Positions 23,757 to 37,549 are shown, counted from the stretch's first letter. The stretch is 64,000 bases of DNA from Candidatus Borrarchaeum weybense (GCA_019057385.1 JAHQJS010000007.1:352001-416000); one strand, 5' to 3'. A program made the numbers and translations. Notes: generated by a model not told the origin, from the sequence alone.

Positions 23757-26291
23757 ATGCAGATACGATGTGGCAGTATGAGTTTAGAAGACTATTTATA
23801 TAGAGATGACGTTCCGGCGAATCTAAAGGAAGCAATAAAAAGAACACTCACCGAATACAAGAAAACAGAGGCTGAATTGAATACTACAATCAAAGAATCA
23901 CGACAACGCCAAGCAGAACATAAGCAATTAGAGCAGCAATTGGTTGAGTCAGAAGCAAAATATCGAACTCTTGTTGAGAGAGATCCGAATATGATCTTTT
24001 ATATTGAAGGAAGGGTGCTTAAATTTGTTAACCAAGCATTTCTGGATATATTAGGGTATTCAAAGGAAGAATTATATGCCCCAGACTTCGATTTTTTCGC
24101 AAATATTATTCCCGAACAAAGAGAAATGTTTAAAGATCATTTGATTGAAATTCTAACTGGAGAAGATGTGCCAGCTTCTTATGAACTCTCTCTATTAACA
24201 AAACAAGCTGAAATTGTCCCTTGTCTTATCAATGTGACATCTTTTGAAAAGGAAGAAAAACAAATTATTCAAGGTGTTATGACAGATATAAGCTTAGTCA
24301 AAGAATTAGAAAAAGAACTCAAGGATTCAGAGGAACGTTATAGAGGTTTATATGAGTCCTCCATAGATGGTATAGTATCTTATGATATGGAAAGAAATAT
24401 CAAAGAATGCAATCAGTCCTTCGCAGATATGCACGGTTATTCCAAGGAAGAACTGCTTCAATTAACACTTTGGGATCTCATATATGAGAAATGGCGTGAT
24501 ATACCAGACAAGATTCGTGCTGAAGTACTTAAGAAGGGTTATTCGGAAGAATTTGACGCAGAACATATCAAGAAAGACGGAAGAATTTTCCCCGTCTCGG
24601 TAAGAGTATGGCTTATGAAAGATAAGAATGGAAGACCTACTGGAATGTGGGAAATCATTCGTGATATCACCGAACGCAAAAAGGCAGAAAATGCTTTGAA
24701 GATGGTAGCATATAATCTTCGCGAACGAGTCAAGGAACTGAGATGCTTCTTTAATATCTCTGAGCTTGTTGACACTCCAGACATTACATTAGAAGAAATC
24801 CTTCAAGGGGTAGTTGAATTCCTTTCCTCCGCCATACAGTATCCAGAAATTGCCTGTGCACGAGTAATACTAAAAAACCAAGAATTTAAAACCGAAAACT
24901 TCAGAGAGACTATCTGGAAGCAAGCAAGCGATATTATTGTGCACGGCAATCGAATAGGCGCTTTAGAAGTCTATTACTTAGAAAAAATGCCAGATAGCGA
25001 TGAAGGACCTTTTCTGAAAGAAGAGAGGAACCTAACAAATGCTATCGCTGAACGAATTGGGAAAATCATCACTCGCAAGCAAGCTGAGGAACAATTAAAA
25101 GAACATACTGAAAATCTAGAAAAAATGGTTGCAGAACGAACAAAAGCATTAAAAGAATCTGAGGAAAAACTTAAGGCGATCTTGAGTGGAATCGGAGACA
25201 TTATCACTATACAAAACAAAGATTTAGATATTATATGGGTAAATCAGGCGGTAAAAGATATATGGGGGGATGTTATCGGAAAGAAATGTTATGAAGTTTA
25301 CAAAGGGTTTGATACTTGTTGTCCTGAGTGTACTGCTGAGAAGGTATTTAAAGAAGGTAAAACTTCGATCTCTGAGGGAATGATCATAAAACCAGATGGA
25401 ACTAAATGTTTCATTATGACCACTAGTTCGCCTGTATACGATGATGAGGGAAATATAACTGCCGCCATAGAAGTAGTGAAGGATATTACTGAAAGGAAAC
25501 GCACTGAAGATGCGCTGAAGAGGAGCGAAACAAGTCTTGCTGAAGCACAAAGGATTGCGCATCTGGGGAATTGGGATTGGAACATTCAAACAAACGAACT
25601 TCACTGGTCAGACGAAATTTATCGCATCTTTGGGTTAGAACCTCAGGAATTTGGTGCAACATATGAGGCTTTTCTAAATTCTGTTCATCCAGAAGATAGA
25701 GAATTCGTTAAAAAATCGGTAGATAAAGCCTTATTTGAAAACGTACCTTATAGTATTGACCATCGCATAATTTTACCAGACGGTGAGGAGCGTATCGTTC
25801 ACGAACACGCAGAAGTTGTTTTTGATGAACTTAGAAAGCCAGTTCGGATGATTGGGACTGTCCAAGACATCACCGAAAGCAAAAAGTCAGAAGAAAGGCT
25901 TAGGGAAAGTGAAAATCGGCTTTCATTAATTTTCAACACCGTTTCCGATTCGATACTTTTTATTAAGATTGAGCCCGATGACCGTTATCAAGTCATTAGC
26001 ATCAATCAAGCATTTTTAACAGATACTGGTTTTACTGAAGAACACGTGGTTGGAAAAATGGTTGATGAAATCTTGCCAGAATCAGTTTATAAAGACTTAA
26101 TTCTTAAATACAAGGAAGTAATTCGAACTGGTAAACCCATTACATATGAAAGTTCTGTTGATTTACCCAAGGGACATCTTACATTTGAAACAACAATAAC
26201 TCCCATTTTTGACGAGAAGGGAAACTGCACTCATCTTCTTGGAGTTGCTCACGATATCAGCAAATTGAGTAACTACAAGAGCAGGATTTGA
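23757..26291 (+). CDS. multi-PAS/PAC plus GAF-like sensor protein with no output domain
   Basis: Five PAS/PAC units ending in DIT/DIS, a GAF-like ERVKEL...LKEER block, coiled-coil linkers; no HisKA or HATPase. Confidence 0.88.
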   Translation: MQIRCGSMSLEDYLYRDDVPANLKEAIKRTLTEYKKTEAELNTTIKESRQRQAEHKQLEQQLVESEAKYRTLVERDPNMIFYIEGRVLKFVNQAFLDILGYSKEELYAPDFDFFANIIPEQREMFKDHLIEILTGEDVPASYELSLLTKQAEIVPCLINVTSFEKEEKQIIQGVMTDISLVKELEKELKDSEERYRGLYESSIDGIVSYDMERNIKECNQSFADMHGYSKEELLQLTLWDLIYEKWRDIPDKIRAEVLKKGYSEEFDAEHIKKDGRIFPVSVRVWLMKDKNGRPTGMWEIIRDITERKKAENALKMVAYNLRERVKELRCFFNISELVDTPDITLEEILQGVVEFLSSAIQYPEIACARVILKNQEFKTENFRETIWKQASDIIVHGNRIGALEVYYLEKMPDSDEGPFLKEERNLTNAIAERIGKIITRKQAEEQLKEHTENLEKMVAERTKALKESEEKLKAILSGIGDIITIQNKDLDIIWVNQAVKDIWGDVIGKKCYEVYKGFDTCCPECTAEKVFKEGKTSISEGMIIKPDGTKCFIMTTSSPVYDDEGNITAAIEVVKDITERKRTEDALKRSETSLAEAQRIAHLGNWDWNIQTNELHWSDEIYRIFGLEPQEFGATYEAFLNSVHPEDREFVKKSVDKALFENVPYSIDHRIILPDGEERIVHEHAEVVFDELRKPVRMIGTVQDITESKKSEERLRESENRLSLIFNTVSDSILFIKIEPDDRYQVISINQAFLTDTGFTEEHVVGKMVDEILPESVYKDLILKYKEVIRTGKPITYESSVDLPKGHLTFETTITPIFDEKGNCTHLLGVAHDISKLSNYKSRI

Positions 26292-26402: not shown

Positions 26403-27005
26403 ATGGAAGATGAAGGCATAATCATAAGCCCTGACACAAAGAGAGAAAATAGAGTGCCTCCTGGTCAAAGACTTACGGAAAAATTTCCAACTCTTCATGC
26501 AGGATCGGTGCCTCGTTATGATCTTTCCAAATGGACTTTTAAAATTACAGGACTAGTCGAAGAGAAAAAAACACTTAGTTATGAAGAATTTATGTCACTT
26601 CCAATGGTAAAAGTTTTTTCAGATGTGCATTGCGTTACTGGCTGGTCAAGATTGAACAATCTCTGGGAGGGTGTAAGCACTAGTGTAATAAAAGAACTTG
26701 TTAACATACTTCCCGAAGCCAAGTTTGTCATATTTCACTGTGCAGAAGGTTGGACAACTAATCTTACTCTAGAAGATTTCTTTCAAGCAGATGTATTATT
26801 TGTTGCCAAATTAGACAATGAACCGAATACTGCAAAGCATGGAGCACCTTGCAGACTTGTAGTACCAAGACTCTATTTTTGGAAAAGTGCAAAATGGGTC
26901 GAACGCTTAGAATTTACAGCAAAAGATAAGCCAGGATTCTGGGAAACAAGAGGGTATCATAACCACGGTGACCCATGGAAAGAAGAGAGGTACAGTTATT
27001 ACTAA
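26403..27005 (+). CDS. sulfite-oxidase-like molybdopterin-binding oxidoreductase
   Basis: PPGQ, DVHCVTGWS, HGAPCRLVVP, WKSAKW, GFWE.RGYH. Confidence 0.92.
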   Translation: MEDEGIIISPDTKRENRVPPGQRLTEKFPTLHAGSVPRYDLSKWTFKITGLVEEKKTLSYEEFMSLPMVKVFSDVHCVTGWSRLNNLWEGVSTSVIKELVNILPEAKFVIFHCAEGWTTNLTLEDFFQADVLFVAKLDNEPNTAKHGAPCRLVVPRLYFWKSAKWVERLEFTAKDKPGFWETRGYHNHGDPWKEERYSYY

Positions 27006-27071: not shown

Positions 27072-27389
27072 TTATTCGACCATTACAGCGACAGCGTCTT
27101 CAAGGGCATCTTTATAAGGCACAGTTACCTTAAGTAAGCCATCTTCGTAAGTAGCCTTAGCCTTTTCAGGAACAATAGGGCAACATACAGCATAGGAACC
27201 GATATACTCAGTTCCTTCTTTGGTTGCATTTATATAAAAGCTATCTTCATGCATCTTTACTCTAACATTCTCTTTTTTTACACCAGGTAATTCTACTTCT
27301 ACAATTAAATTCTCATGGTTCTCATCACGAAATGCAAGCAATGCTGGAGATATTTTTACGACTTCTTCGGACATAGAATCATCCTCCAT
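27072..27389 (-). CDS. small heat-shock protein (Hsp20/alpha-crystallin)
   Basis: ELPGVKKE, ATYEDGLLKVTVP. Confidence 0.9.
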   Translation of the reverse strand: MEDDSMSEEVVKISPALLAFRDENHENLIVEVELPGVKKENVRVKMHEDSFYINATKEGTEYIGSYAVCCPIVPEKAKATYEDGLLKVTVPYKDALEDAVAVMVE

Positions 27390-27657: not shown

Positions 27658-30600
27658 ATGGTTTTCTATTTAGTTAATTCTCCGAAAAAAAAGAAGCGAC
27701 TGATTTTCCATTATAGGCACGTAAGACGCCATTCGTTCGTATTTGCAAGTTTTGTCGTCCTTTTTATACTTTTCATGGGCAGTTTTTTCATAACACCTCA
27801 GTATCCTAATATGACTGAAGAACCAAATTCTACTTACAATATAAAATATCCCTCTATCAATGACGGAACACAATATGTTACTTCAGGTGTATCCGCTCTG
27901 GATAATGGAGATTCTCCAATAGATCCAAGTGGAACTGGTACCGCTTTGAGCGGGGTAAATGAATATCTAGCAAATGATACAACATTTAACGCTGTTCTTG
28001 TAAACAATACTGGTAATACTGACTATACGGGTAATGAATCGATTTATGTGTCACCCTTTGAACAAGGTGTTGGTCGAAAGGATCTCATCTACTTCAATTT
28101 TACAACAGATCGCATAGCAAATGCGACTGAAGATACTGAAAACATTGAAAATGACTATGCTGGAAACTCAATTGGGACAGGAACATATGCACAGGAGTTC
28201 GTTGTGTCTACATCAAGTGATTATTATTATTTGACTGAAGTACAACTTCGTGCTATAGGTGGAACTTCCGCAGTACAAGACGGATCATGTTATATACAAA
28301 TCAGAAATTCCACTACTGGAGGCGCACCCTCCGATGATCCTGATGAAATTTTTTACCAATCCGACCCCCTTACTGTGCCATTCGGTTTAAATGAGAATAT
28401 TCCCTTCGATTTATCTGATGAAAATATAATATTGAGATCTGATCGTTCCTATTTCATTGTAATTGTTGTAGGTTCAAACACTGAGTTTTACAGTATAGAT
28501 GATGTAACAGATCTAGAGGGAGATTATGGAGCTTCATATGTGTACTCAGGTGGATGGTTCGGACCAGGATCGGTTGATTTTAGTTTTGAACATGTTAAAT
28601 ACCAAGAGGCATTTTATGCAGATACGACCACCAATGACTATAACGATCTTAACATGAATGTCACTGTTTATGGTGCTGGGGTGAACGGTCCATATACTGT
28701 AAACTCTGCCGAGGGAGGATCAGGGGGAGATTGGTGGATCGGTGGGCAAGTATCTCACGTATTTTCACCAGATATTTCACCTACTGCTAGTGGAACATTC
28801 GAGTTTGATATTGACGTTGATGATGATGTCAGTGCTAGAAACCTGACGATAGATTTCAATGTAACGATCTATTATTTGTGGGCTGATACAACATCAACGG
28901 GCACTCCTACTTATAATGTCCTAAATGGAACTGATGTTACATGGACTGTAACTTATGATCCAAATGACCGTACACTTGATCCATCAACCCCAGCAACTTG
29001 GTATGATTATTTCTTTGTGATCGATAACATACCGAATGATTGGAACGCAACAGTAGTCAGAGATAATAATGGGATTAGACACACATCACTATGCGAATCT
29101 GTAGATGGTAGTTATGTAAACGTTACAAAAACCGCTGTCGGAAATTCAACAGTTGGGGACGATCCATGGACAGTAACCTGTGTTGCGCCAAACTATTTGG
29201 ATGAGGGAGGCGATATAACTGTTAGTCCAGCACAAGGAGTTTATACAAGTGGCGATACTTTAGACATTCAAGCCACATTAAGCGATAACGCCTTTGATAG
29301 TGGTCTTGCTGATATGAACTTAACACGACCAGATAGTTCGCTTCTCTATCAAGATACAGATGAATCACCATCCACAGGACAAATTGCCTTCAGCCCCACT
29401 TATGATATACCCTACGACATCGCCGATGGAGATTATGGGATTTATGTCCTCTGGGAAGGTGAAACTGGTCAAAACACAGAGAACAAAGTAGGCTTTAGGT
29501 ACGAAGAAATTTATATTGACGGTTTAAGTTCTGGAAATGGGGGTAATGGTGGAGGAGGCGGTAATGGTGGGGGTGGTAGCGGTGGTGGAGGAGATGGCGA
29601 TGGTGGCGGCACTTCAAGTAAAACCTTCACTGTTACCCCAGGTGCAAATCTTGATGATCTTGAATTAGAAGCGGGTACAACAGGTACAATAACAATAAAT
29701 GTAACTGGCTCTGGATTCGTTAGTAATTGTAGCGTGTCTTTAAGTATAGGAAACTCAAAGTTTGAAGCAATAGAAACAAACAACAGTTATGTAATTAACT
29801 ATGATCTCATAGATCTAGAGTCTGGTAATTATACTGCAAAACTTACCGTAGAAAAAACAGGATTCTCTACATACACTAAATTATTTGATATTCTCGTATC
29901 TCCGATGACTACAATAACTGCTATGCGAGTCTATGCCGTACGAACGACAGTTTTCGTTCAAGAGAACTGGTTATTGTCAACAACTTGGTTCATTTTAGCA
30001 ATAGTTTTTGTATCAATAATTCTAACGGTATATATAAGACCTCTAAATAGCGATTATCTTTTCGATCTCTATATTTTCGATAGAAACAACATGGCGATCT
30101 ATAAACAGAATTTCACCCCAATAGAAACATTACTCGATCCAGAATTGCCGAAAGAAAGTGTTGATGCACGAAAAGCCAAAGAAGAGCTAAAAGAGCAAGC
30201 TATTACGGGTATTACAGGTCTCCTAAAGGAATTAACAGCAGAAGAAACGCAAAATATTGATCTCAAGACATTAAGGATATCTATGGATGGTAAAGATGCA
30301 AAAGTAGCGGTGTGGACAAAACAAGCTAGTTCGATTCTCAAGCCCTTTGTAAATTACAAAGTGGATAGATTTTTGAGAAAACTACGACACAAATTTGAAG
30401 AATATTACTATGTTGACCTTAAACTTTCAAAACCAGGCGTATCCGAATATCTAAACATACCAAGTGTGTTTCTTGAAAGCTTCAAACTTACTTCCTCACC
30501 TGAGCTCTATAGCCTCTATATAGAGTATGCTGAGTATCTTGAAGCTGTAAAATGTCCAGTTCTTGCTTCTGACGCATATTTCAAAGCATTAGGAATATGT

Positions 30601-31089
30601 GTCAACGAACAAATGAAGGACGAAATAGATAGTTGCTATTTCCATTTGATGAAGTCGCTTGAAAATATTCGTGGTATGCTGGGCATACTAAGATGGGTTC
30701 CATTTCTCTCTCCGACATCTTTGTTTACGCCACACAATTTCTTCAAACTGCATATTTTGTTTAAAGTAACAAGTCTATTTCGTGATATTCGAAAAAGAAA
30801 AGAACTAAAATATATCCGTTCAAAGTGGATTGCTGAAAATAGCAGAAGAACTGCAACAGATTTAATTCAACCAGAAGTTGTCGTGTCGGTAAAAAGCAAA
30901 AACTATTCCAAGGCTCTCGCACAAATGGAGCAAGCCATATCGTTATTAGAGTATGCACAAAAGATATATACACAAATTAAAATGTCAAAAGAAGCCGACG
31001 CTGTTTCATCTGTTCTTTCCACATTCACAGACAAACGGGATGAATTAGTTAAAATGAGTGAAGGATTAGGCAATATAGTTAATTCTTAG
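27658..31089 (+). CDS. large membrane protein: extracellular beta-rich domains, Gly linker, TM, cytoplasmic longin-like and helical-repeat domains
   Basis: N-terminal TM; D/T/N-rich region with many NxS/T sequons; poly-Gly at ~29521-29610; TM at ~29965-30035; then LFDLYIFDRNNMAIYKQNF...AITGITGLLKEL...LRHKFEEYY. Confidence 0.8.
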   Translation: MVFYLVNSPKKKKRLIFHYRHVRRHSFVFASFVVLFILFMGSFFITPQYPNMTEEPNSTYNIKYPSINDGTQYVTSGVSALDNGDSPIDPSGTGTALSGVNEYLANDTTFNAVLVNNTGNTDYTGNESIYVSPFEQGVGRKDLIYFNFTTDRIANATEDTENIENDYAGNSIGTGTYAQEFVVSTSSDYYYLTEVQLRAIGGTSAVQDGSCYIQIRNSTTGGAPSDDPDEIFYQSDPLTVPFGLNENIPFDLSDENIILRSDRSYFIVIVVGSNTEFYSIDDVTDLEGDYGASYVYSGGWFGPGSVDFSFEHVKYQEAFYADTTTNDYNDLNMNVTVYGAGVNGPYTVNSAEGGSGGDWWIGGQVSHVFSPDISPTASGTFEFDIDVDDDVSARNLTIDFNVTIYYLWADTTSTGTPTYNVLNGTDVTWTVTYDPNDRTLDPSTPATWYDYFFVIDNIPNDWNATVVRDNNGIRHTSLCESVDGSYVNVTKTAVGNSTVGDDPWTVTCVAPNYLDEGGDITVSPAQGVYTSGDTLDIQATLSDNAFDSGLADMNLTRPDSSLLYQDTDESPSTGQIAFSPTYDIPYDIADGDYGIYVLWEGETGQNTENKVGFRYEEIYIDGLSSGNGGNGGGGGNGGGGSGGGGDGDGGGTSSKTFTVTPGANLDDLELEAGTTGTITINVTGSGFVSNCSVSLSIGNSKFEAIETNNSYVINYDLIDLESGNYTAKLTVEKTGFSTYTKLFDILVSPMTTITAMRVYAVRTTVFVQENWLLSTTWFILAIVFVSIILTVYIRPLNSDYLFDLYIFDRNNMAIYKQNFTPIETLLDPELPKESVDARKAKEELKEQAITGITGLLKELTAEETQNIDLKTLRISMDGKDAKVAVWTKQASSILKPFVNYKVDRFLRKLRHKFEEYYYVDLKLSKPGVSEYLNIPSVFLESFKLTSSPELYSLYIEYAEYLEAVKCPVLASDAYFKALGICVNEQMKDEIDSCYFHLMKSLENIRGMLGILRWVPFLSPTSLFTPHNFFKLHILFKVTSLFRDIRKRKELKYIRSKWIAENSRRTATDLIQPEVVVSVKSKNYSKALAQMEQAISLLEYAQKIYTQIKMSKEADAVSSVLSTFTDKRDELVKMSEGLGNIVNS

Positions 31090-31677
31090 TTACCACCAGT
31101 CACTTTTTGCGCGTTCCTTCCACTCAACTGCTTTTTCTACCTCAAAAAGTCTTTCTTCCAGCATCATACTACCAAGTTTAAGGAACACTTCCTCCACATT
31201 CTGATTGGTCTTGGCAGACGTTTCATAAAATGGAATGACTCTATTATATTGTTCCGAAAGTGTGTCTGCTAAAGTGTCGCCATCGCTTGCAGGCACCGCC
31301 CTCACAATATCTAGATCGCATTTGTTCCCCACGAGTATCATAGGTATAGACTGATCGATGTTGTTCATAAGGTCGTCTATCCATACCGAGATTTTCTTCA
31401 AAGACTCCATGCGAGTCACGTCATATACAAGAAGTGCGCCGTGAGCGCCGCGATAGTATGCTGACTGAAGAAACCTAAACCGTTCTTGTCCTGCAGTGTC
31501 CCAGATTTGCATCGTAATTTCTTGTCCTTCAATAGTATAAGGCTTCGTTCCAAATTCAACGCCGATAGTTGAAATGTAGGCTCTATCAAACTTGCCATAA
31601 CAGGTTCTGATTGTTATACTTGATTTCCCAACCGCACCGTCCCCAATCACTACAACCTTAAAGATATTTTTCTTCAT
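31090..31677 (-). CDS. Rab-like small GTPase (tandem copy 1)
   Basis: GDGAVGKS, IGVEF, WDTAGQE, YYRGA, NKCD, SAK; ends DWW. Confidence 0.95.
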   Translation of the reverse strand: MKKNIFKVVVIGDGAVGKSSITIRTCYGKFDRAYISTIGVEFGTKPYTIEGQEITMQIWDTAGQERFRFLQSAYYRGAHGALLVYDVTRMESLKKISVWIDDLMNNIDQSIPMILVGNKCDLDIVRAVPASDGDTLADTLSEQYNRVIPFYETSAKTNQNVEEVFLKLGSMMLEERLFEVEKAVEWKERAKSDWW

Positions 31678-31833
31678 CTTTCATGTCACCCTATCTGAAC
31701 ATGTTAATGAGGCGTAACAGAATCACCAGGAGAAGCATATCTAATCTTTAATTACCATTTTGACAGAATTATGAGTACATCTACACTAGGACTAATATTT
31801 ACAGAACTCACAATAATAATTAGTTTTTAGACT

Positions 31834-32424
31834 TTACCACCAGTCATTTTTTGCTCGTTCCTTCCACTCAACTGCTTTTTCTACCTCAAAAAGCCGTTCT
31901 TCCAGCATCATACTACCAAGTTTAAGGAACACTTCCTCCACATTCTGATTGGTCTTTGCTGACGTTTCAAAAAACGGAATATCCTGCTGATAGTGTTTAG
32001 AAAGATGTTTCGCTAAATGCTCCCCCTCATCTGTGTCAACTGATCTTATATCATCTAAATCACACTTATTCCCTATAATTATAGTCGGCAAAGAAGTGCC
32101 AACATTTCCCGTAAGGTAACCCATCCAGATTGGTATCCTCTCAAATGATTGTCGTCTAGTCACATCATATACGACCAAAGCACCATGTGCACCACTATAG
32201 TACGCTGGTTGCAGAAAACGAAATCGTTCTTGTCCTGCAGTATCCCAGATCTGCAGTTTGACTTTTTGTCCCTTAATTGTGCACATCTTCATTCCAAACT
32301 CAACGCCAATAGTCATTAAATACTCTCCGTCAAATTGACCATGGCATATTCTCACAGTTATACTTGTTTTTCCGACGGCACCGTCTCCAATAACGACAAC
32401 CTTGAAAAGATTTTGTTTCGCCAT
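31834..32424 (-). CDS. Rab-like small GTPase (tandem copy 2)
   Basis: GDGAVGKT, IGVEF, KLQIWDTAGQE, NKCD, SAK; ends DWW. Confidence 0.95.
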   Translation of the reverse strand: MAKQNLFKVVVIGDGAVGKTSITVRICHGQFDGEYLMTIGVEFGMKMCTIKGQKVKLQIWDTAGQERFRFLQPAYYSGAHGALVVYDVTRRQSFERIPIWMGYLTGNVGTSLPTIIIGNKCDLDDIRSVDTDEGEHLAKHLSKHYQQDIPFFETSAKTNQNVEEVFLKLGSMMLEERLFEVEKAVEWKERAKNDWW

Positions 32425-32462
32425 TATTTCACCATTTTAGTAAATTTTTTCTTTTTAAAAAA

Positions 32463-33050
32463 TTACCACCAAGTACCTTCTGCACGTTCTTTCCATTCTT
32501 CAGCATTCTTAAATTCAATAAGCCGTTCTTCTAGCATCAATGAGCCGAGTTTAATAAATAACTCCTCTACATTCTGATTGGTTTTGGCAGACGCTTCAAA
32601 GAAGGGAATTACTCTTTTATACTCAGTTGAAAGTTTTTCTGCTAAAAGTTTACCTTCCTCGAAGGTGACCACTCTCAATTCATCTAGATCACACTTATTT
32701 CCTACGAGAATAGTAGGAATAGGATCAGTAATTGTACTAAGAAGATTGTCCATCCATGAAGGAATTTTGTCGAAAGACTCCTTGCGAGTTATATCGTACA
32801 CAAGAAGTGCTCCATGTGACCCCCGATAATATGCTGGCTGGAGAAAACGAAACCTTTCTTGTCCTGCAGTATCCCAGATTTGCATTCTAATCTCGTCATT
32901 CTCAACCGTACAAGCCTTTGTTCCAAACTCGACACCAATAGTCATCAAGTATTCTCCGTCAAATTGACCATGACAAGTCCTAACTGTTATACTTGTTTTT
33001 CCGACAGCGCCATCTCCAATAACAACGATCTTGAAAAGACTATTGTCCAT
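32463..33050 (-). CDS. Rab-like small GTPase (tandem copy 3)
   Basis: Same G-boxes, LVYDIT; ends TWW. Confidence 0.95.
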   Translation of the reverse strand: MDNSLFKIVVIGDGAVGKTSITVRTCHGQFDGEYLMTIGVEFGTKACTVENDEIRMQIWDTAGQERFRFLQPAYYRGSHGALLVYDITRKESFDKIPSWMDNLLSTITDPIPTILVGNKCDLDELRVVTFEEGKLLAEKLSTEYKRVIPFFEASAKTNQNVEELFIKLGSLMLEERLIEFKNAEEWKERAEGTWW

Positions 33051-33320: not shown

Positions 33321-34415
33321 TTATTTCCACTCATCCCACAATTTAGAAAAAATACTTGCCAACGAGATGAGGTCCTGTTTATTGTGGTCAACGATAGGGA
33401 TTAAAGGTCCTGGATTTTCTGTTTTCAAATATGTATCATAAAAATCTGGAATTAGAGTATTTGGTACATCATCTTCCCTTTTGATTCCAAGCAGATGATT
33501 TTCTATGGTATTTAATCGACAATTTGGTAGGTGTTCTTTCCACGCACGCCTTGAGAAATGAAGTAAGTCAATGTTGAAATGCTTGAGATCTGCATCCATC
33601 CCATAATAAGCAACACGTTCCTGTATATAGGGAACATCAAAGGCACGTCCGTTATATGTAACTAAGGCAGCACTCTCTTTAAAATGAGAAAGGGTAGCTG
33701 CTATTGCTCCAGCCTCTTCTGAGATATCACGCAATAAATATTGACTTATTGAAATTTTTTTACCTGAAATATGAGCGATACCAAACAATATTATTGGCCT
33801 TGTAAAGAATCCAAGTGTTTCTATATCGAGAAACACAAAATCTTCCTTATTATATAGACCTGACGCATATAACATAAGTGGGTGCGACTTTGGAAAGCGT
33901 TTTCCAATCCAATCAATTATGTTGACAAGGTCAAATTCGTCAAAGAATGTCAAGAATTCTTTAGCTTTGCTTCTGAATCGTGGATGTCCAATAAGATCTT
34001 TGATAGTCTTGTATCCTTTCCGTTTTAATTGAAGTTCAGTTTTCTCTCTAATGCCAAAAATAAGCTTAAGATCTGATAATATTTTTTTTCTCATTTCATC
34101 TTTGTCTGGTTTTATTAGACTAACTTCGGTGTGATCTGATAGGCAATAACATGCACCCATTTCCGTTGTAAGTTCTTCTCCACTAAGCACATCTTCGATT
34201 TTTGCCCCTTCATACCTATCAAGCAAGTCGATCTTCAATTTTTGGGCTTCTAAATATTTAAAATCAAGTATAAACGAAGGGATAAATCCTGTTTCGACTA
34301 ATGGTTCTTCAGCAGTAATTTCAAATTCTTTTGCAATATCTACTCGTTCTCTGAACTTTCTTCCTATGTTATCGAAGAAATCTTCCATGCTATCCTTTGT
34401 CTCCTGCTTGTTCAT
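33321..34415 (-). CDS. RNase H-like (DEDD) exonuclease, YprB-like
   Basis: FLDIETLG, TYNGRAFDVP, HN.QD; HhH-like LIFGI. Confidence 0.85.
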   Translation of the reverse strand: MNKQETKDSMEDFFDNIGRKFRERVDIAKEFEITAEEPLVETGFIPSFILDFKYLEAQKLKIDLLDRYEGAKIEDVLSGEELTTEMGACYCLSDHTEVSLIKPDKDEMRKKILSDLKLIFGIREKTELQLKRKGYKTIKDLIGHPRFRSKAKEFLTFFDEFDLVNIIDWIGKRFPKSHPLMLYASGLYNKEDFVFLDIETLGFFTRPIILFGIAHISGKKISISQYLLRDISEEAGAIAATLSHFKESAALVTYNGRAFDVPYIQERVAYYGMDADLKHFNIDLLHFSRRAWKEHLPNCRLNTIENHLLGIKREDDVPNTLIPDFYDTYLKTENPGPLIPIVDHNKQDLISLASIFSKLWDEWK

Positions 34416-35546: not shown

Positions 35547-36395
35547 TCACGGGAGATAATCTATAAAAAACTTATCAAGTCCTAAATCTCGTATTCGATT
35601 CCAATCTTGTTTTAGATAGGGATGAATATGCTTTTTAAATTCTTCAGAATACTTCTTACTTCCCAGATACTCTTCAAGAACAACCAATGTAGATTTACAT
35701 AAATCATGAATGGTTGCCTTTACAGTTTCAGCACTTAATTCTGGATTAAAAACATTTACACTCAAGACATCTAAAAAAGTCTCTTTTATGTCAAAAATTT
35801 GCGAAAGTTCTTCCACATTTAGAATATGCTTATGATACTCTATCGTTTCTTTTAATTGATCCTCAAGTTTTTGCTTAATTTTTCCTTTTTTGAAAAGAGG
35901 GAAAGTCATTTTAGCGATTCTAGAAAAAAGCTGTTGAAATACTTCCAATATATCCATTTTTTCAGCAATTGAAGTTGTAATCTTAACATCCATCCATGAG
36001 TGTATTAAATCTTCAATGATATCGTTGAATTTTTGAAATATTGTTTGTTCACCGCTCCAATTCAACCAGAACTCCCTACCTCCTTTCACCACAAAAGGAA
36101 ATTCCTGCAGAAATGAACTTTTTATATAGTCTACCTGCATTTTAAGATTTGATCTCTTGTCTTCTTTGTCTGCTGCTAAAACAAAAAGTAAGTTATGACT
36201 GAAACAATAGACAAAAATGTATTCTCCCATTTCCATACTTTCTATACCGAAACCACTTATTTCACTTTCTGCAAAGGTATAAACTGCGGACAAAAAACCA
36301 GATAACAGAACATCTTGTGCTTCAATAGATCCAAATCTTTTATGAAATACTGGTCTTCCAGTTTCTTTTTCGAGTATCCAGACATTTTGGATCAT
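35547..36395 (-). CDS. longin-domain protein (paralogue A)
   Basis: MIQNVWILEKETGRPVF...LLSGFLSAV..F; start moved to 36395 by alignment with its paralogue. Confidence 0.8.
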   Translation of the reverse strand: MIQNVWILEKETGRPVFHKRFGSIEAQDVLLSGFLSAVYTFAESEISGFGIESMEMGEYIFVYCFSHNLLFVLAADKEDKRSNLKMQVDYIKSSFLQEFPFVVKGGREFWLNWSGEQTIFQKFNDIIEDLIHSWMDVKITTSIAEKMDILEVFQQLFSRIAKMTFPLFKKGKIKQKLEDQLKETIEYHKHILNVEELSQIFDIKETFLDVLSVNVFNPELSAETVKATIHDLCKSTLVVLEEYLGSKKYSEEFKKHIHPYLKQDWNRIRDLGLDKFFIDYLP

Positions 36396-36651
36396 GGGTC
36401 CTCCCCATAGCGAGTATAACCCTATTAATATTTGTGTTTTTCGCTCACGACAAAAAAGGCTATTTGCTATACTTAGTGTATTTGTATTTAACTCAATAGA
36501 ACTCATAAATTGAAGACATAAGATTCTTTTATCGCAATTTAAATTTCTTTTTAGCTCTTAGTCGAATGAGAATGCATTTTAATAATACAAAATATTGAAT
36601 ATTGTGATACTTTGGTGTACAAGATATTTAGTGTGCATTAAAATTGTTTAC

Positions 36652-36698
36652 AAGTCTCCATCAAGGAAACCCCTACCGTTTAGCATGAAATAGCTCAC
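36652..36698 (+). mobile_element. degenerate 47-bp fused-end IS200/IS605 mini-element
   Basis: TTAC then AAGTCTCCATCAAGGAAACCCC...TTTAG...TAGCTCAC; left-end-like and right-end-like motifs, hairpin decayed. Confidence 0.45.
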
Positions 36699-37549
36699 AT
36701 GACGTAATTAATGAAAAACTTATCAAGCTCCAATTCGCGTATTCTATCCCAATCTTGTTTAACGTATGGGAAGACATGAGTTCGAAATTCTTCACCAAAA
36801 CTTTTCTTTCCCATGTATTCCTGGAGAACATCTAGTATCGTTTTGCATAAATCTAAAAGTGTTAGCTTCAGTGTTGAAACAGTTAATTCAGGATTAAAGA
36901 CATTTACAGATAACACATCAAGAAAGGTCTTTTCACTATCATATATACTTGAAAGTTCTTCTATGTTTAAAACACTCTTATGAGCTTTTATTATTTCCAT
37001 TAACTTGAGCTCTAAATTTGCTTTAATTGACATCTCTCTAAAATATGGAAAGCTAATTTTTGCTATCCTTGAAAAAATCTGCTGAAAAACCTCTAAAAAG
37101 TCCATTTTTTCAGCAATAGATGTCGTAGCTTCGACCTCTACCCAAGAGCCTATTAAATCCCTCAAAGGAAACATAAATTTTTTGAATTTATCTCGATCTC
37201 CAAGCCAATTCCTGAGAAAGTCCTCATGATTTTCTTTGAGACCAGGAAATTCGTCTATAAAACTATCCCTTATTAAATCAATCTGTGCTTTAAGGCTAGA
37301 TGAACTATCTGTCTTATCCGCTGCCATAACAAAAAGAAGTCCGTGTGAAAGGCAATAAATCATATTATAGTCTCCCATTTCCATGCTTTCTATACCAAGA
37401 CCACCTATTTCCGTCTCAGCAAACGAATATATAGCAGATAAAAATCCTGATAGCAAATCTTCTTCCGTCTCGATAGAACCTAGTTTATCGTGAAACAGAA
37501 GCCTTCCACTTTTCTCTAGAATCCACACATTATGAATCATAGTGCTCAC
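36695..37549 (-). CDS. longin-domain protein (paralogue B)
   Basis: MIHNVWILEKSGRLLF...LLSGFLSAI..F; colinear with paralogue A over its full length. Confidence 0.82.
   Translation of the reverse strand: MSTMIHNVWILEKSGRLLFHDKLGSIETEEDLLSGFLSAIYSFAETEIGGLGIESMEMGDYNMIYCLSHGLLFVMAADKTDSSSSLKAQIDLIRDSFIDEFPGLKENHEDFLRNWLGDRDKFKKFMFPLRDLIGSWVEVEATTSIAEKMDFLEVFQQIFSRIAKISFPYFREMSIKANLELKLMEIIKAHKSVLNIEELSSIYDSEKTFLDVLSVNVFNPELTVSTLKLTLLDLCKTILDVLQEYMGKKSFGEEFRTHVFPYVKQDWDRIRELELDKFFINYVM

Follow-up and report, generated by a model that had tools for sequence, protein, structure and literature searches.

Rab-like GTPases and longin/roadblock proteins are numerous in Asgard archaea. How do Asgard Rabs, which lack prenyl cysteines, for which no membrane route is known and whose genes show little operon linkage (Tran et al. 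2024, PMC10933270), reach membranes, and which regulator serves which GTPase? This question is addressed here by a locus of the uncultured Asgard archaeon Candidatus Borrarchaeum weybense, found in a stretch of 64,000 nucleotides (GCA_019057385.1 JAHQJS010000007.1:352001-416000; below, the window, with positions counted from its first letter). The locus consists of a gene for a predicted surface protein, designated P0001, and of three tandem genes for Rab-like GTPases, convergent to it. We propose that P0001 may serve the Rab-like GTPases of its own clade as a docking or regulatory platform tethered to the membrane, and put the probability of this reading somewhat below one half, at roughly 45%. 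The architecture of P0001, its paralogy, its conserved adjacency to the GTPase genes and the narrow distribution common to both were observed; binding, the direction in which regulation would run (guanine nucleotide exchange factor, GEF; GTPase-activating protein, GAP; or anchor/effector) and any sensing by the ectodomain we infer. The features concerned are the following (aa, amino acids; AF2, AlphaFold2; pLDDT, predicted local distance difference test).

27658–31089, plus strand: P0001, predicted surface glycoprotein that crosses the membrane once, with a longin-like domain and then a helical tail on the cytoplasmic side (open reading frame, ORF, of 1143 aa; translation, hydropathy)
27730–27792, plus strand: N-terminal signal peptide or signal anchor, aa 25–45 (Kyte-Doolittle peak 2.66; K/R-rich N-terminus before the segment)
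27793–29970, plus strand: ectodomain, aa 46–771, acidic, sequon-rich, rich in T/G/D/S/N (sequon count against shuffles)
29527–29610, plus strand: Gly-rich hinge, aa 624–651 (sequence reading; paralogues have the same hinge ahead of the stalk)
29611–29907, plus strand: membrane-proximal Ig-like stalk, aa 652–750 (matches to paralogues of the same genome, E 1e-9 to 3e-14)
29971–30036, plus strand: transmembrane helix, aa 772–793 (Kyte-Doolittle peak 2.37)
30049–30432, plus strand: probable diverged longin-like domain, aa 798–925, with an insert of ~26 aa between beta2 and alpha1 (hhalign against the in-genome family)
30433–30807, plus strand: helical region, TPR/SNAP-like, aa 926–1050 (AF2 helices, pLDDT 58–83)
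30808–31086, plus strand: terminal three-helix bundle, aa 1051–1143, of MIT-like shape, with the motif RRxATDxxQP...AIxxLE (AF2, pLDDT 77–94)
31090–31677, minus strand: Rab-like GTPase 1, 195 aa, ending EWKERAKSDWW (Pfam Ras 6e-56; best PDB matches Rab1/Rab10, E 1e-41)
31834–32424, minus strand: Rab-like GTPase 2, 196 aa, ending EWKERAKNDWW (Pfam Ras about 1e-56)
32463–33050, minus strand: Rab-like GTPase 3, 195 aa, ending EWKERAEGTWW (Pfam Ras about 1e-56)

An earlier note on this DNA had described three tandem Rab-like genes, the first of which meets P0001 stop to stop, and both statements hold. The TAG of P0001 (31087–31089) directly abuts the stop codon of GTPase 1 (TTA on the plus strand, from 31090), the Pfam Ras matches reach about 1e-56, and all 60 of the PDB matches listed are Rabs, at E 1e-41 to 5e-38 (595 matches at E ≤ 1e-20). 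No variation occurs in the G motifs of the Ras fold (GDGAVGK[ST], the T of switch I, DTAGQE, NKCD and SAK), and the closest similarity of these proteins is to Rabs. All 11 members of the clade end in [DT]WW and have no C-terminal Cys, and with it no geranylgeranylation motif of the CC or CxC type; it is because of this lack, common to other Asgard Rabs (PMC10933270), that we call them Rab-like rather than Rab. The tail EWKERAxxWW (below, the WW tail) is present on 3 of the 35 Ras-superfamily ORFs of the source genome, exactly those adjoining P0001. Because its hydrophobic moment is low (muH 0.19–0.28) and its net charge is negative (-2 to -3), the tail is unlikely to bind lipids by itself. The 3' ends of the genes for GTPases 1 and 2 (31090–31227 and 31834–31971) are 93–96% identical over the last ~135 nucleotides (nt), with 7 differences in 138 nt, as against 51–82% elsewhere, and this difference indicates recent gene conversion confined to the tail-coding end, which points to conversion as a process that may keep the two tails alike.

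The pair is not restricted to the window. Wherever DNA downstream of a P0001-type gene was available, a convergent gene for a WW-tail GTPase follows: in Promethearchaeota isolate DZ3M.366 (G002), of the same genus, in locus L005, with two such GTPases, in locus L074, with three and with abutting stops, and in Ca. Sifarchaeum subterraneum (G005), which belongs to another family of the same class (Sifarchaeia). The Sifarchaeum homologue of P0001 is 28% identical and convergent to a single WW-tail GTPase gene, followed by an unrelated methyltransferase-like ORF; since this other neighbour differs from that in the window, conservation between the two families is confined to the pair. As the Sifarchaeum contig ends just on the 3' side of the place expected for a longin region, comparison of the two lineages is limited to the C-terminal helical tail, whose identity is 20–25% over aa 915–1040 and 33–37% over aa 1041–1136, with the motif RRxATDxxQP...AIxxLE invariant. 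On the GTPase side, the last 12 residues are 83% identical between the two lineages, compared with 57–63% for the G domain. The best conserved parts of the pair are thus the terminal bundle of P0001 and the end of the GTPase.

Two contacts might be made. The longin-like platform of P0001 could bind the G domain of the GTPases, the terminal three-helix bundle could bind their WW tail, or both might occur. By either contact the Rab-like GTPases would be kept at the cell membrane or regulated there, perhaps depending on the state of the ectodomain. A predicted complex of the cytoplasmic domain with the GTPase (ipSAE 0.02) gives no verdict and was counted neither way.

P0001 itself proved to be built largely as the earlier note had it. 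Translation returned the ORF of 1143 aa at 27658–31089 on the plus strand; hydropathy revealed two hydrophobic segments, aa 25–45 and aa 772–793, that is, a single transmembrane helix besides the N-terminal signal or anchor. Between them lies an ectodomain in which aa 46–770 contain 20 N-x-S/T sequons (11.2 +/- 2.8 in composition-matched shuffles), and the 350-aa C-terminal, cytoplasmic part contains 2. The glycine hinge is a real Gly run, not adjacent to the transmembrane helix: it separates the ectodomain head from the Ig-like stalk and is preceded, at ~aa 526–610, by weak matches to the beta-sandwich families MG2 and DUF4625. A word-indexed search of a set of 5.8 billion proteins found no homologue of similar length for the ectodomain, and neither that search nor a Pfam scan disclosed a ligand-binding fold in it. 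Residues 297–721 have paralogues in the source genome and in G004, a further genome of the same genus, and the Ig-like stalk recurs in the source genome on no fewer than 5 further surface proteins. P0001 is a lineage-restricted surface protein of the Asgard class Sifarchaeia and belongs to a small modular family of single-pass membrane proteins in which a variable ectodomain, a Gly hinge, an Ig-like stalk and a transmembrane helix are followed by a cytoplasmic longin-like domain and a helical tail.

Relatives of this build in the source genome are P0008 and P0009, whose stalks match that of P0001 at E 1e-12 to 3e-14. In both of them, and in a split copy, the transmembrane helix is followed at once by a clear longin-like domain of the in-genome family (E 1e-27 to 1e-31), and in a MAFFT alignment P0001 is colinear with P0008 and P0009 at 20–25% identity. 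The domain of P0001 therefore has the same position and context as bona fide members of the family. P0008 belongs to a second locus in which a transmembrane longin-like protein neighbours a GTPase (G000:C7:182519-189167, where G000 is the source genome; L064): the split copy (597 aa and 157 aa, interrupted between 184312 and 184319 by a stop or a frameshift) is followed by the intact P0008 (1095 aa) and, after 52 nt, by a co-directional gene of the Ras family. The arrangement recurs in G004, where the GTPase gene and the transmembrane-longin gene overlap by 14 nt. The tail of the GTPase beside P0008 is polybasic and amphipathic (net charge +10, muH 0.62) and by these calculated properties looks suited to direct membrane binding. 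The third paralogue, P0009 (1037 aa, G000:C6:961188-964301, L065), comes to within 234 nt of where contig C6 ends.

Adjacency of this kind is enriched across the source genome, which has about 30 longin-like and 35 Ras-superfamily ORFs. A Ras-like ORF was found within 3 kb of 9 out of 31 longin-like ORFs (4.6% for all ORFs of at least 150 aa) and within 100 nt of 4 out of 31 (background 0.54%), figures that are a rough measure only because tandem copies are not independent; examples are C4:613488/612857, C4:620035/621014, C4:649572/648620 and C7:728455/727799.

Whether the juxtamembrane region of P0001, aa 798–925, is a longin domain, as had been claimed, was assessed against a family of 30 longin-like members from the source genome, obtained by iteration. 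Among its 26 aligned members, 8 match the Pfam family Fuz_longin_1, and others match Longin, Sybindin or Robl_LC7. The family includes two soluble proteins of the window:

35547–36506, minus strand: soluble longin-like protein, 319 aa (Fuz_longin_1 25.6 bits; in-genome family E 6e-45), possibly part of the P0001/GTPase system
36695–37549, minus strand: soluble longin-like protein, 284 aa, tandem paralogue of the preceding one (Fuz_longin_1 26.3 bits, above cut-off; family E 1e-44)

When the family profile was used in hmmsearch, the P0001 domain was the first match below the threshold (E 0.14). The hhalign comparison with the family gave Prob 48.7, P 1.8e-4 and a score of 28.4 over 102 columns, and all 250 controls scored lower (maximum 19.8 for 150 random native segments and 17.6 for 100 shuffles). 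The alignment requires the insert of ~26 aa between beta2 and alpha1, and the signal appeared only with the iterated 30-member family, the comparison with a first set of 9 longins being not significant. Taken together with the paralogy and the order of secondary-structure elements, this argues that aa 798–925 of P0001 are probably a diverged longin-like domain.

Several results weigh against this assignment or against the platform as a whole. No Pfam family was assigned to any part of P0001, and the longin-like region had no Pfam match even at E<=10. AF2 models of the domain were of low confidence: with a shallow alignment of orthologues the pLDDT was <50 and the order beta-beta-alpha-beta-beta-alpha, and with rows of the family added the pLDDT was 55, the predicted template modelling score 0.33 and the order beta-beta-alpha-beta-beta-beta-alpha-alpha, so that the packing in three dimensions is unreliable. 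Foldseek, the check proposed earlier for this region, gave a best E of 0.05 at a template modelling (TM) score of about 0.2, which is not significant, yet its top 44 rows are nearly all longin or roadblock proteins (TRAPP C1/C2/C4, MglB, zeta-COP, sigma-adaptin, LC7, SRX, Mon1-Ccz1), with SRX (1nrj) and Gtr1-Gtr2/EGOC among the weak rows. Alignment of the second AF2 model by VIA returned nothing at Z>=5, the Mon1-Ccz1-Bulli and BLOC-3 complexes standing at Z 4.1, and whatever resemblance this model shows is not independent, as it was built with family rows. Structural rows of the Atlas reached TM<=0.31, again not significant, and the weak rows were almost all longin or roadblock proteins; ESM Atlas features for the region were at most 0.86, with one row named Roadblock/Fuz_longin at 0.83.

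The linkage has its own weak points. P0001 and the GTPases are not co-transcribed, as their genes are convergent. The Sifarchaeum instance lies on one short 2.6-kb contig without the 5' part of the gene, and it is the only one beyond the genus; thus conservation of the neighbourhood in Asgard genomes, which the earlier note had asked for, was found insofar as the pair is kept, in a single distant instance and with convergent genes. The Sifarchaeum homologue has an extra C-terminal RING finger (zf-RING_2, 30.6 bits), which suggests another activity for it, and P0017, a more distant transmembrane-longin relative (53% identity), has no GTPase neighbour. The co-distribution described below carries little statistical weight because the family is tiny.

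Exhaustive phmmer with the cytoplasmic part of P0001 found 3 representatives among 1.84 billion, all of them close relatives or fragments; a word-indexed search gave no match for this part among proteins of similar length. In whole-genome searches the cytoplasmic part occurred only in G000, G002 and G005. A profile search of 400 Asgard genomes gave no credible match beyond the class, since its six weak ones (E 1e-4 to 5e-3) cover short stretches, and a metagenome scan with the profile found none. Among the same 400 genomes the WW tail was found only in G000, G002, G004 and G005, all of this class, and a scan for its pattern returned only contigs of the same genus and one false positive from a high-GC bacterium. 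The helical tail of P0001 was thus found only in 3 of the 4 genomes that have the WW tail. The lack of a P0001 match in the fourth, G004, was not read as absence, as the G004 contig starts 84 nt beyond the orthologue of GTPase 2. A separate observation concerns P0006 (L004, an ENA contig of 824 nt), a protein of 189 aa that shares 55% identity with the terminal region of P0001 over its C-terminal 135 aa and is unrelated to P0001 over its first ~50 aa; it may be chimeric, mis-called, or a truncated divergent relative.

As for the part of P0001 beyond the longin-like domain, AF2 models residues 946–1143 as helical, with pLDDT 58–94. The helical nature of the tail, predicted earlier, is thereby upheld, and its likeness to TPR or SNAP proteins is not significant: Foldseek gave E 0.06–0.3 to gamma-SNAP, Sec17, NASP, MamA and CTPR, and Pfam gave no TPR or SNAP match at aa 926–1050. 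Against PDB sequences, a profile reached E 0.04 for the helical repeats that precede the mTOR kinase domain and 3.1 for YrrB, and neither phmmer nor hmmsearch against these sequences produced anything better than E 0.04. By hhalign, the tail is dissimilar to the tails of P0008 and P0009 and to the C-domains of the soluble longins. The terminal bundle aligned by VIA with ten MIT domains, including those of Vps4, katanin, MITD1, NRBF2, ULK3, calpain-7 and archaeal CdvC, at Z 9.2–11.3; designed and unrelated bundles score equally well, Pfam gave no MIT match at aa 1051–1143, and ESM Atlas features were at most 0.84.

It is this bundle on which another explanation would place the whole weight of recruitment. 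In the Rab-like GTPases of Sifarchaeia the lipid anchor would have been replaced by the EWKERAxxWW peptide, whose helix would be recognised by the MIT-like bundle of P0001, so that a protein anchor stands in place of prenylation and the longin-like domain has a secondary or regulatory role. MIT domains are known to bind helices at the C-termini of partner proteins, conservation across the two lineages is highest in the bundle and in the last 12 residues of the GTPases, the bundle and the WW tail have the same narrow distribution, the WW tail is by its properties poor at lipid binding, and gene conversion may keep two of the tails alike. On the other hand, three-helix bundles reach comparable Z against many proteins that are unrelated or designed, the Pfam and ESM results are those given above, and the sequences are too few for covariation; we consider this explanation improbable. 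Quite improbable, too, is the function assigned to P0001 by the earlier note, that of a transmembrane GEF whose ectodomain senses an external cue and whose longin domain switches on nucleotide exchange on the Rabs. The domain is indeed longin-like in the hhalign comparison with the in-genome family, its adjacency to the GTPase genes is conserved, and longin domains form the GTPase-binding core of the Mon1-Ccz1, TRAPP and DENN GEFs (PMC10152722, PMC3521125). These GEFs are paired or heteromeric and often have extra modules, whereas the P0001 chain has one longin-like domain only, highly diverged and with a 26-aa insert. GAPs, such as MglB, FLCN-FNIP and GATOR1, or GTP-dependent anchors, such as the SRX domain of SR-alpha with SR-beta and Ragulator with Rag, are no less frequent than GEFs among longin and roadblock proteins. 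Nothing in the analysis bears on catalysis, the ectodomain yielded no ligand-binding fold, and the step from 'longin-like' to 'GEF' has no measurable support here.

The main rival of the platform, which we regard as rather unlikely, is that the genes are adjacent without any functional link. P0001 would then be an adhesin or other glycoprotein of the surface, with its cytoplasmic part engaged in something else, such as anchoring, turnover or ubiquitin-type signalling. The convergent orientation agrees with this, as does the location of Asgard GTPases mostly outside operons with their regulators (PMC10933270). The stalk is found also on a surface protein without a longin tail (C3:114990-117926) and on one with a TPR-RING tail (C7:443459-454120), so that stalk and transmembrane helix appear to be a chassis for varying cytoplasmic modules (none, longin, or TPR-RING). 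Relatives of the P0017 type have no GTPase neighbour, the distant instance of the pair is a single one, and its RING finger hints at ubiquitin-type signalling. Against it, ~0.5% of ORFs would be expected to have a Ras-like ORF within 100 nt, and two independent transmembrane-longin loci have one; the pair persists in Sifarchaeum although the other neighbour changes; and within the genome the WW tail occurs only on the GTPases adjoining P0001. We keep the docking or regulatory platform as the preferred reading.

Other genes were noted around these. The protein encoded at C7:443459-454120 is a giant surface protein of 3553 aa with the same stalk module, a transmembrane helix at aa 3189–3207 and a TPR-like cytoplasmic region; the Cys/His pattern of its RING finger closely resembles that of the RING tail of the Sifarchaeum homologue. 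Directly after the GTPase triplet lies an RNase_H_2/PolB-exonuclease-like gene (33321–34415, minus strand), which keeps its position in contigs of the same genus (G004 C100, L072, L075) and not in Sifarchaeum. Upstream of P0001, on the same strand, is the gene for an 844-aa multi-PAS protein (23757–26291, plus strand), after which come a small gene with a molybdopterin-oxidoreductase domain (26403–27005) and an HSP20/CS-domain gene (27072–27389, minus strand). No link of these genes to the P0001/GTPase pair was seen.

The locus offers a matched pair that can be tested at the bench, and the second transmembrane-longin/GTPase locus of this genome can serve for internal comparison. Were binding shown, a prokaryotic single-pass surface protein would be coupled directly to a Rab-type switch, and the GTPases could reach the membrane without any lipid modification. 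If, further, the tail is recognised by the bundle, recruitment of Rabs to membranes would rest on a protein in archaea closely related to eukaryotes, and the ectodomain might regulate it. We found no published description of a pair formed by a transmembrane longin-like protein of the P0001 type and WW-tail GTPases. Asgard longin domains are known to be widely shuffled into lineage-specific architectures (PMC10933270; 10.1101/2020.10.19.343400), and the term 'transmembrane' is absent from both of these sources (the latter being the preprint of Liu et al. 2020), which describe no targeting of Asgard Rabs to membranes and see little linkage in operons.

Among known systems, the eukaryotic longin regulators of Rabs (Mon1-Ccz1, the TRAPP core of Bet5/Trs23/Trs20, DENN, Fuz/CPLANE and HPS1-HPS4) are alike in having a longin-type alpha/beta platform, here genomically paired with Rab-like GTPases. 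The family Fuz_longin_1, which corresponds to the first longin domain of FUZ, MON1 and HPS1, is matched by the in-genome family that P0001 remotely resembles. P0001 differs from these regulators in having one longin-like domain, behind a transmembrane helix and a large ectodomain predicted to be glycosylated, instead of paired longins in the chain, and its sequence similarity is detectable only through intermediate paralogues. SRX with SR-beta, and Ragulator/LAMTOR with Rag, are closer to the docking side of the proposal, as a longin or roadblock platform there tethers a GTPase without an anchor of its own through a membrane-anchored partner. In the signal recognition particle receptor, however, the transmembrane helix is on the GTPase SR-beta, and Ragulator is lipid-anchored through LAMTOR1, whereas in P0001 the platform itself is a transmembrane protein and the GTPases are Rab-like, not Arf-like or Rag-like.

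Bacterial modules of roadblock proteins and GTPases with separate membrane components are known as well (Wuichet and Sogaard-Andersen 2014, PMC4316618). In MglB-MglA, the Streptomyces conservon (CvnA-D) and the neighbourhoods of Group 1 Rup, a gene for a small Ras-superfamily GTPase lies, as here, beside genes for roadblock/longin-class and membrane proteins, and such sets have been interpreted as signalling units linked to the membrane (PMC4316618). There, separate genes encode the membrane component and the roadblock protein (for example, the histidine kinase CvnA plus CvnB), and the GTPases are of the MglA or Rup type; P0001, in contrast, fuses both functions in a eukaryote-style single-pass glycoprotein, and its GTPases are Rab-like. 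The soluble longin and roadblock proteins of Asgard archaea and the Rab-like GTPases of Thor and Loki lineages represent the same protein families in the same phylum, with Rabs likewise devoid of prenylation cysteines, whereas here a membrane-anchored longin-like protein stands beside a Rab clade with a dedicated C-terminal tail. What is particular to the P0001 locus is the combination of a diverged longin-like domain, a conserved additional helical tail, a clade of WW-tail Rab-like GTPases, and a narrow distribution shared by them.

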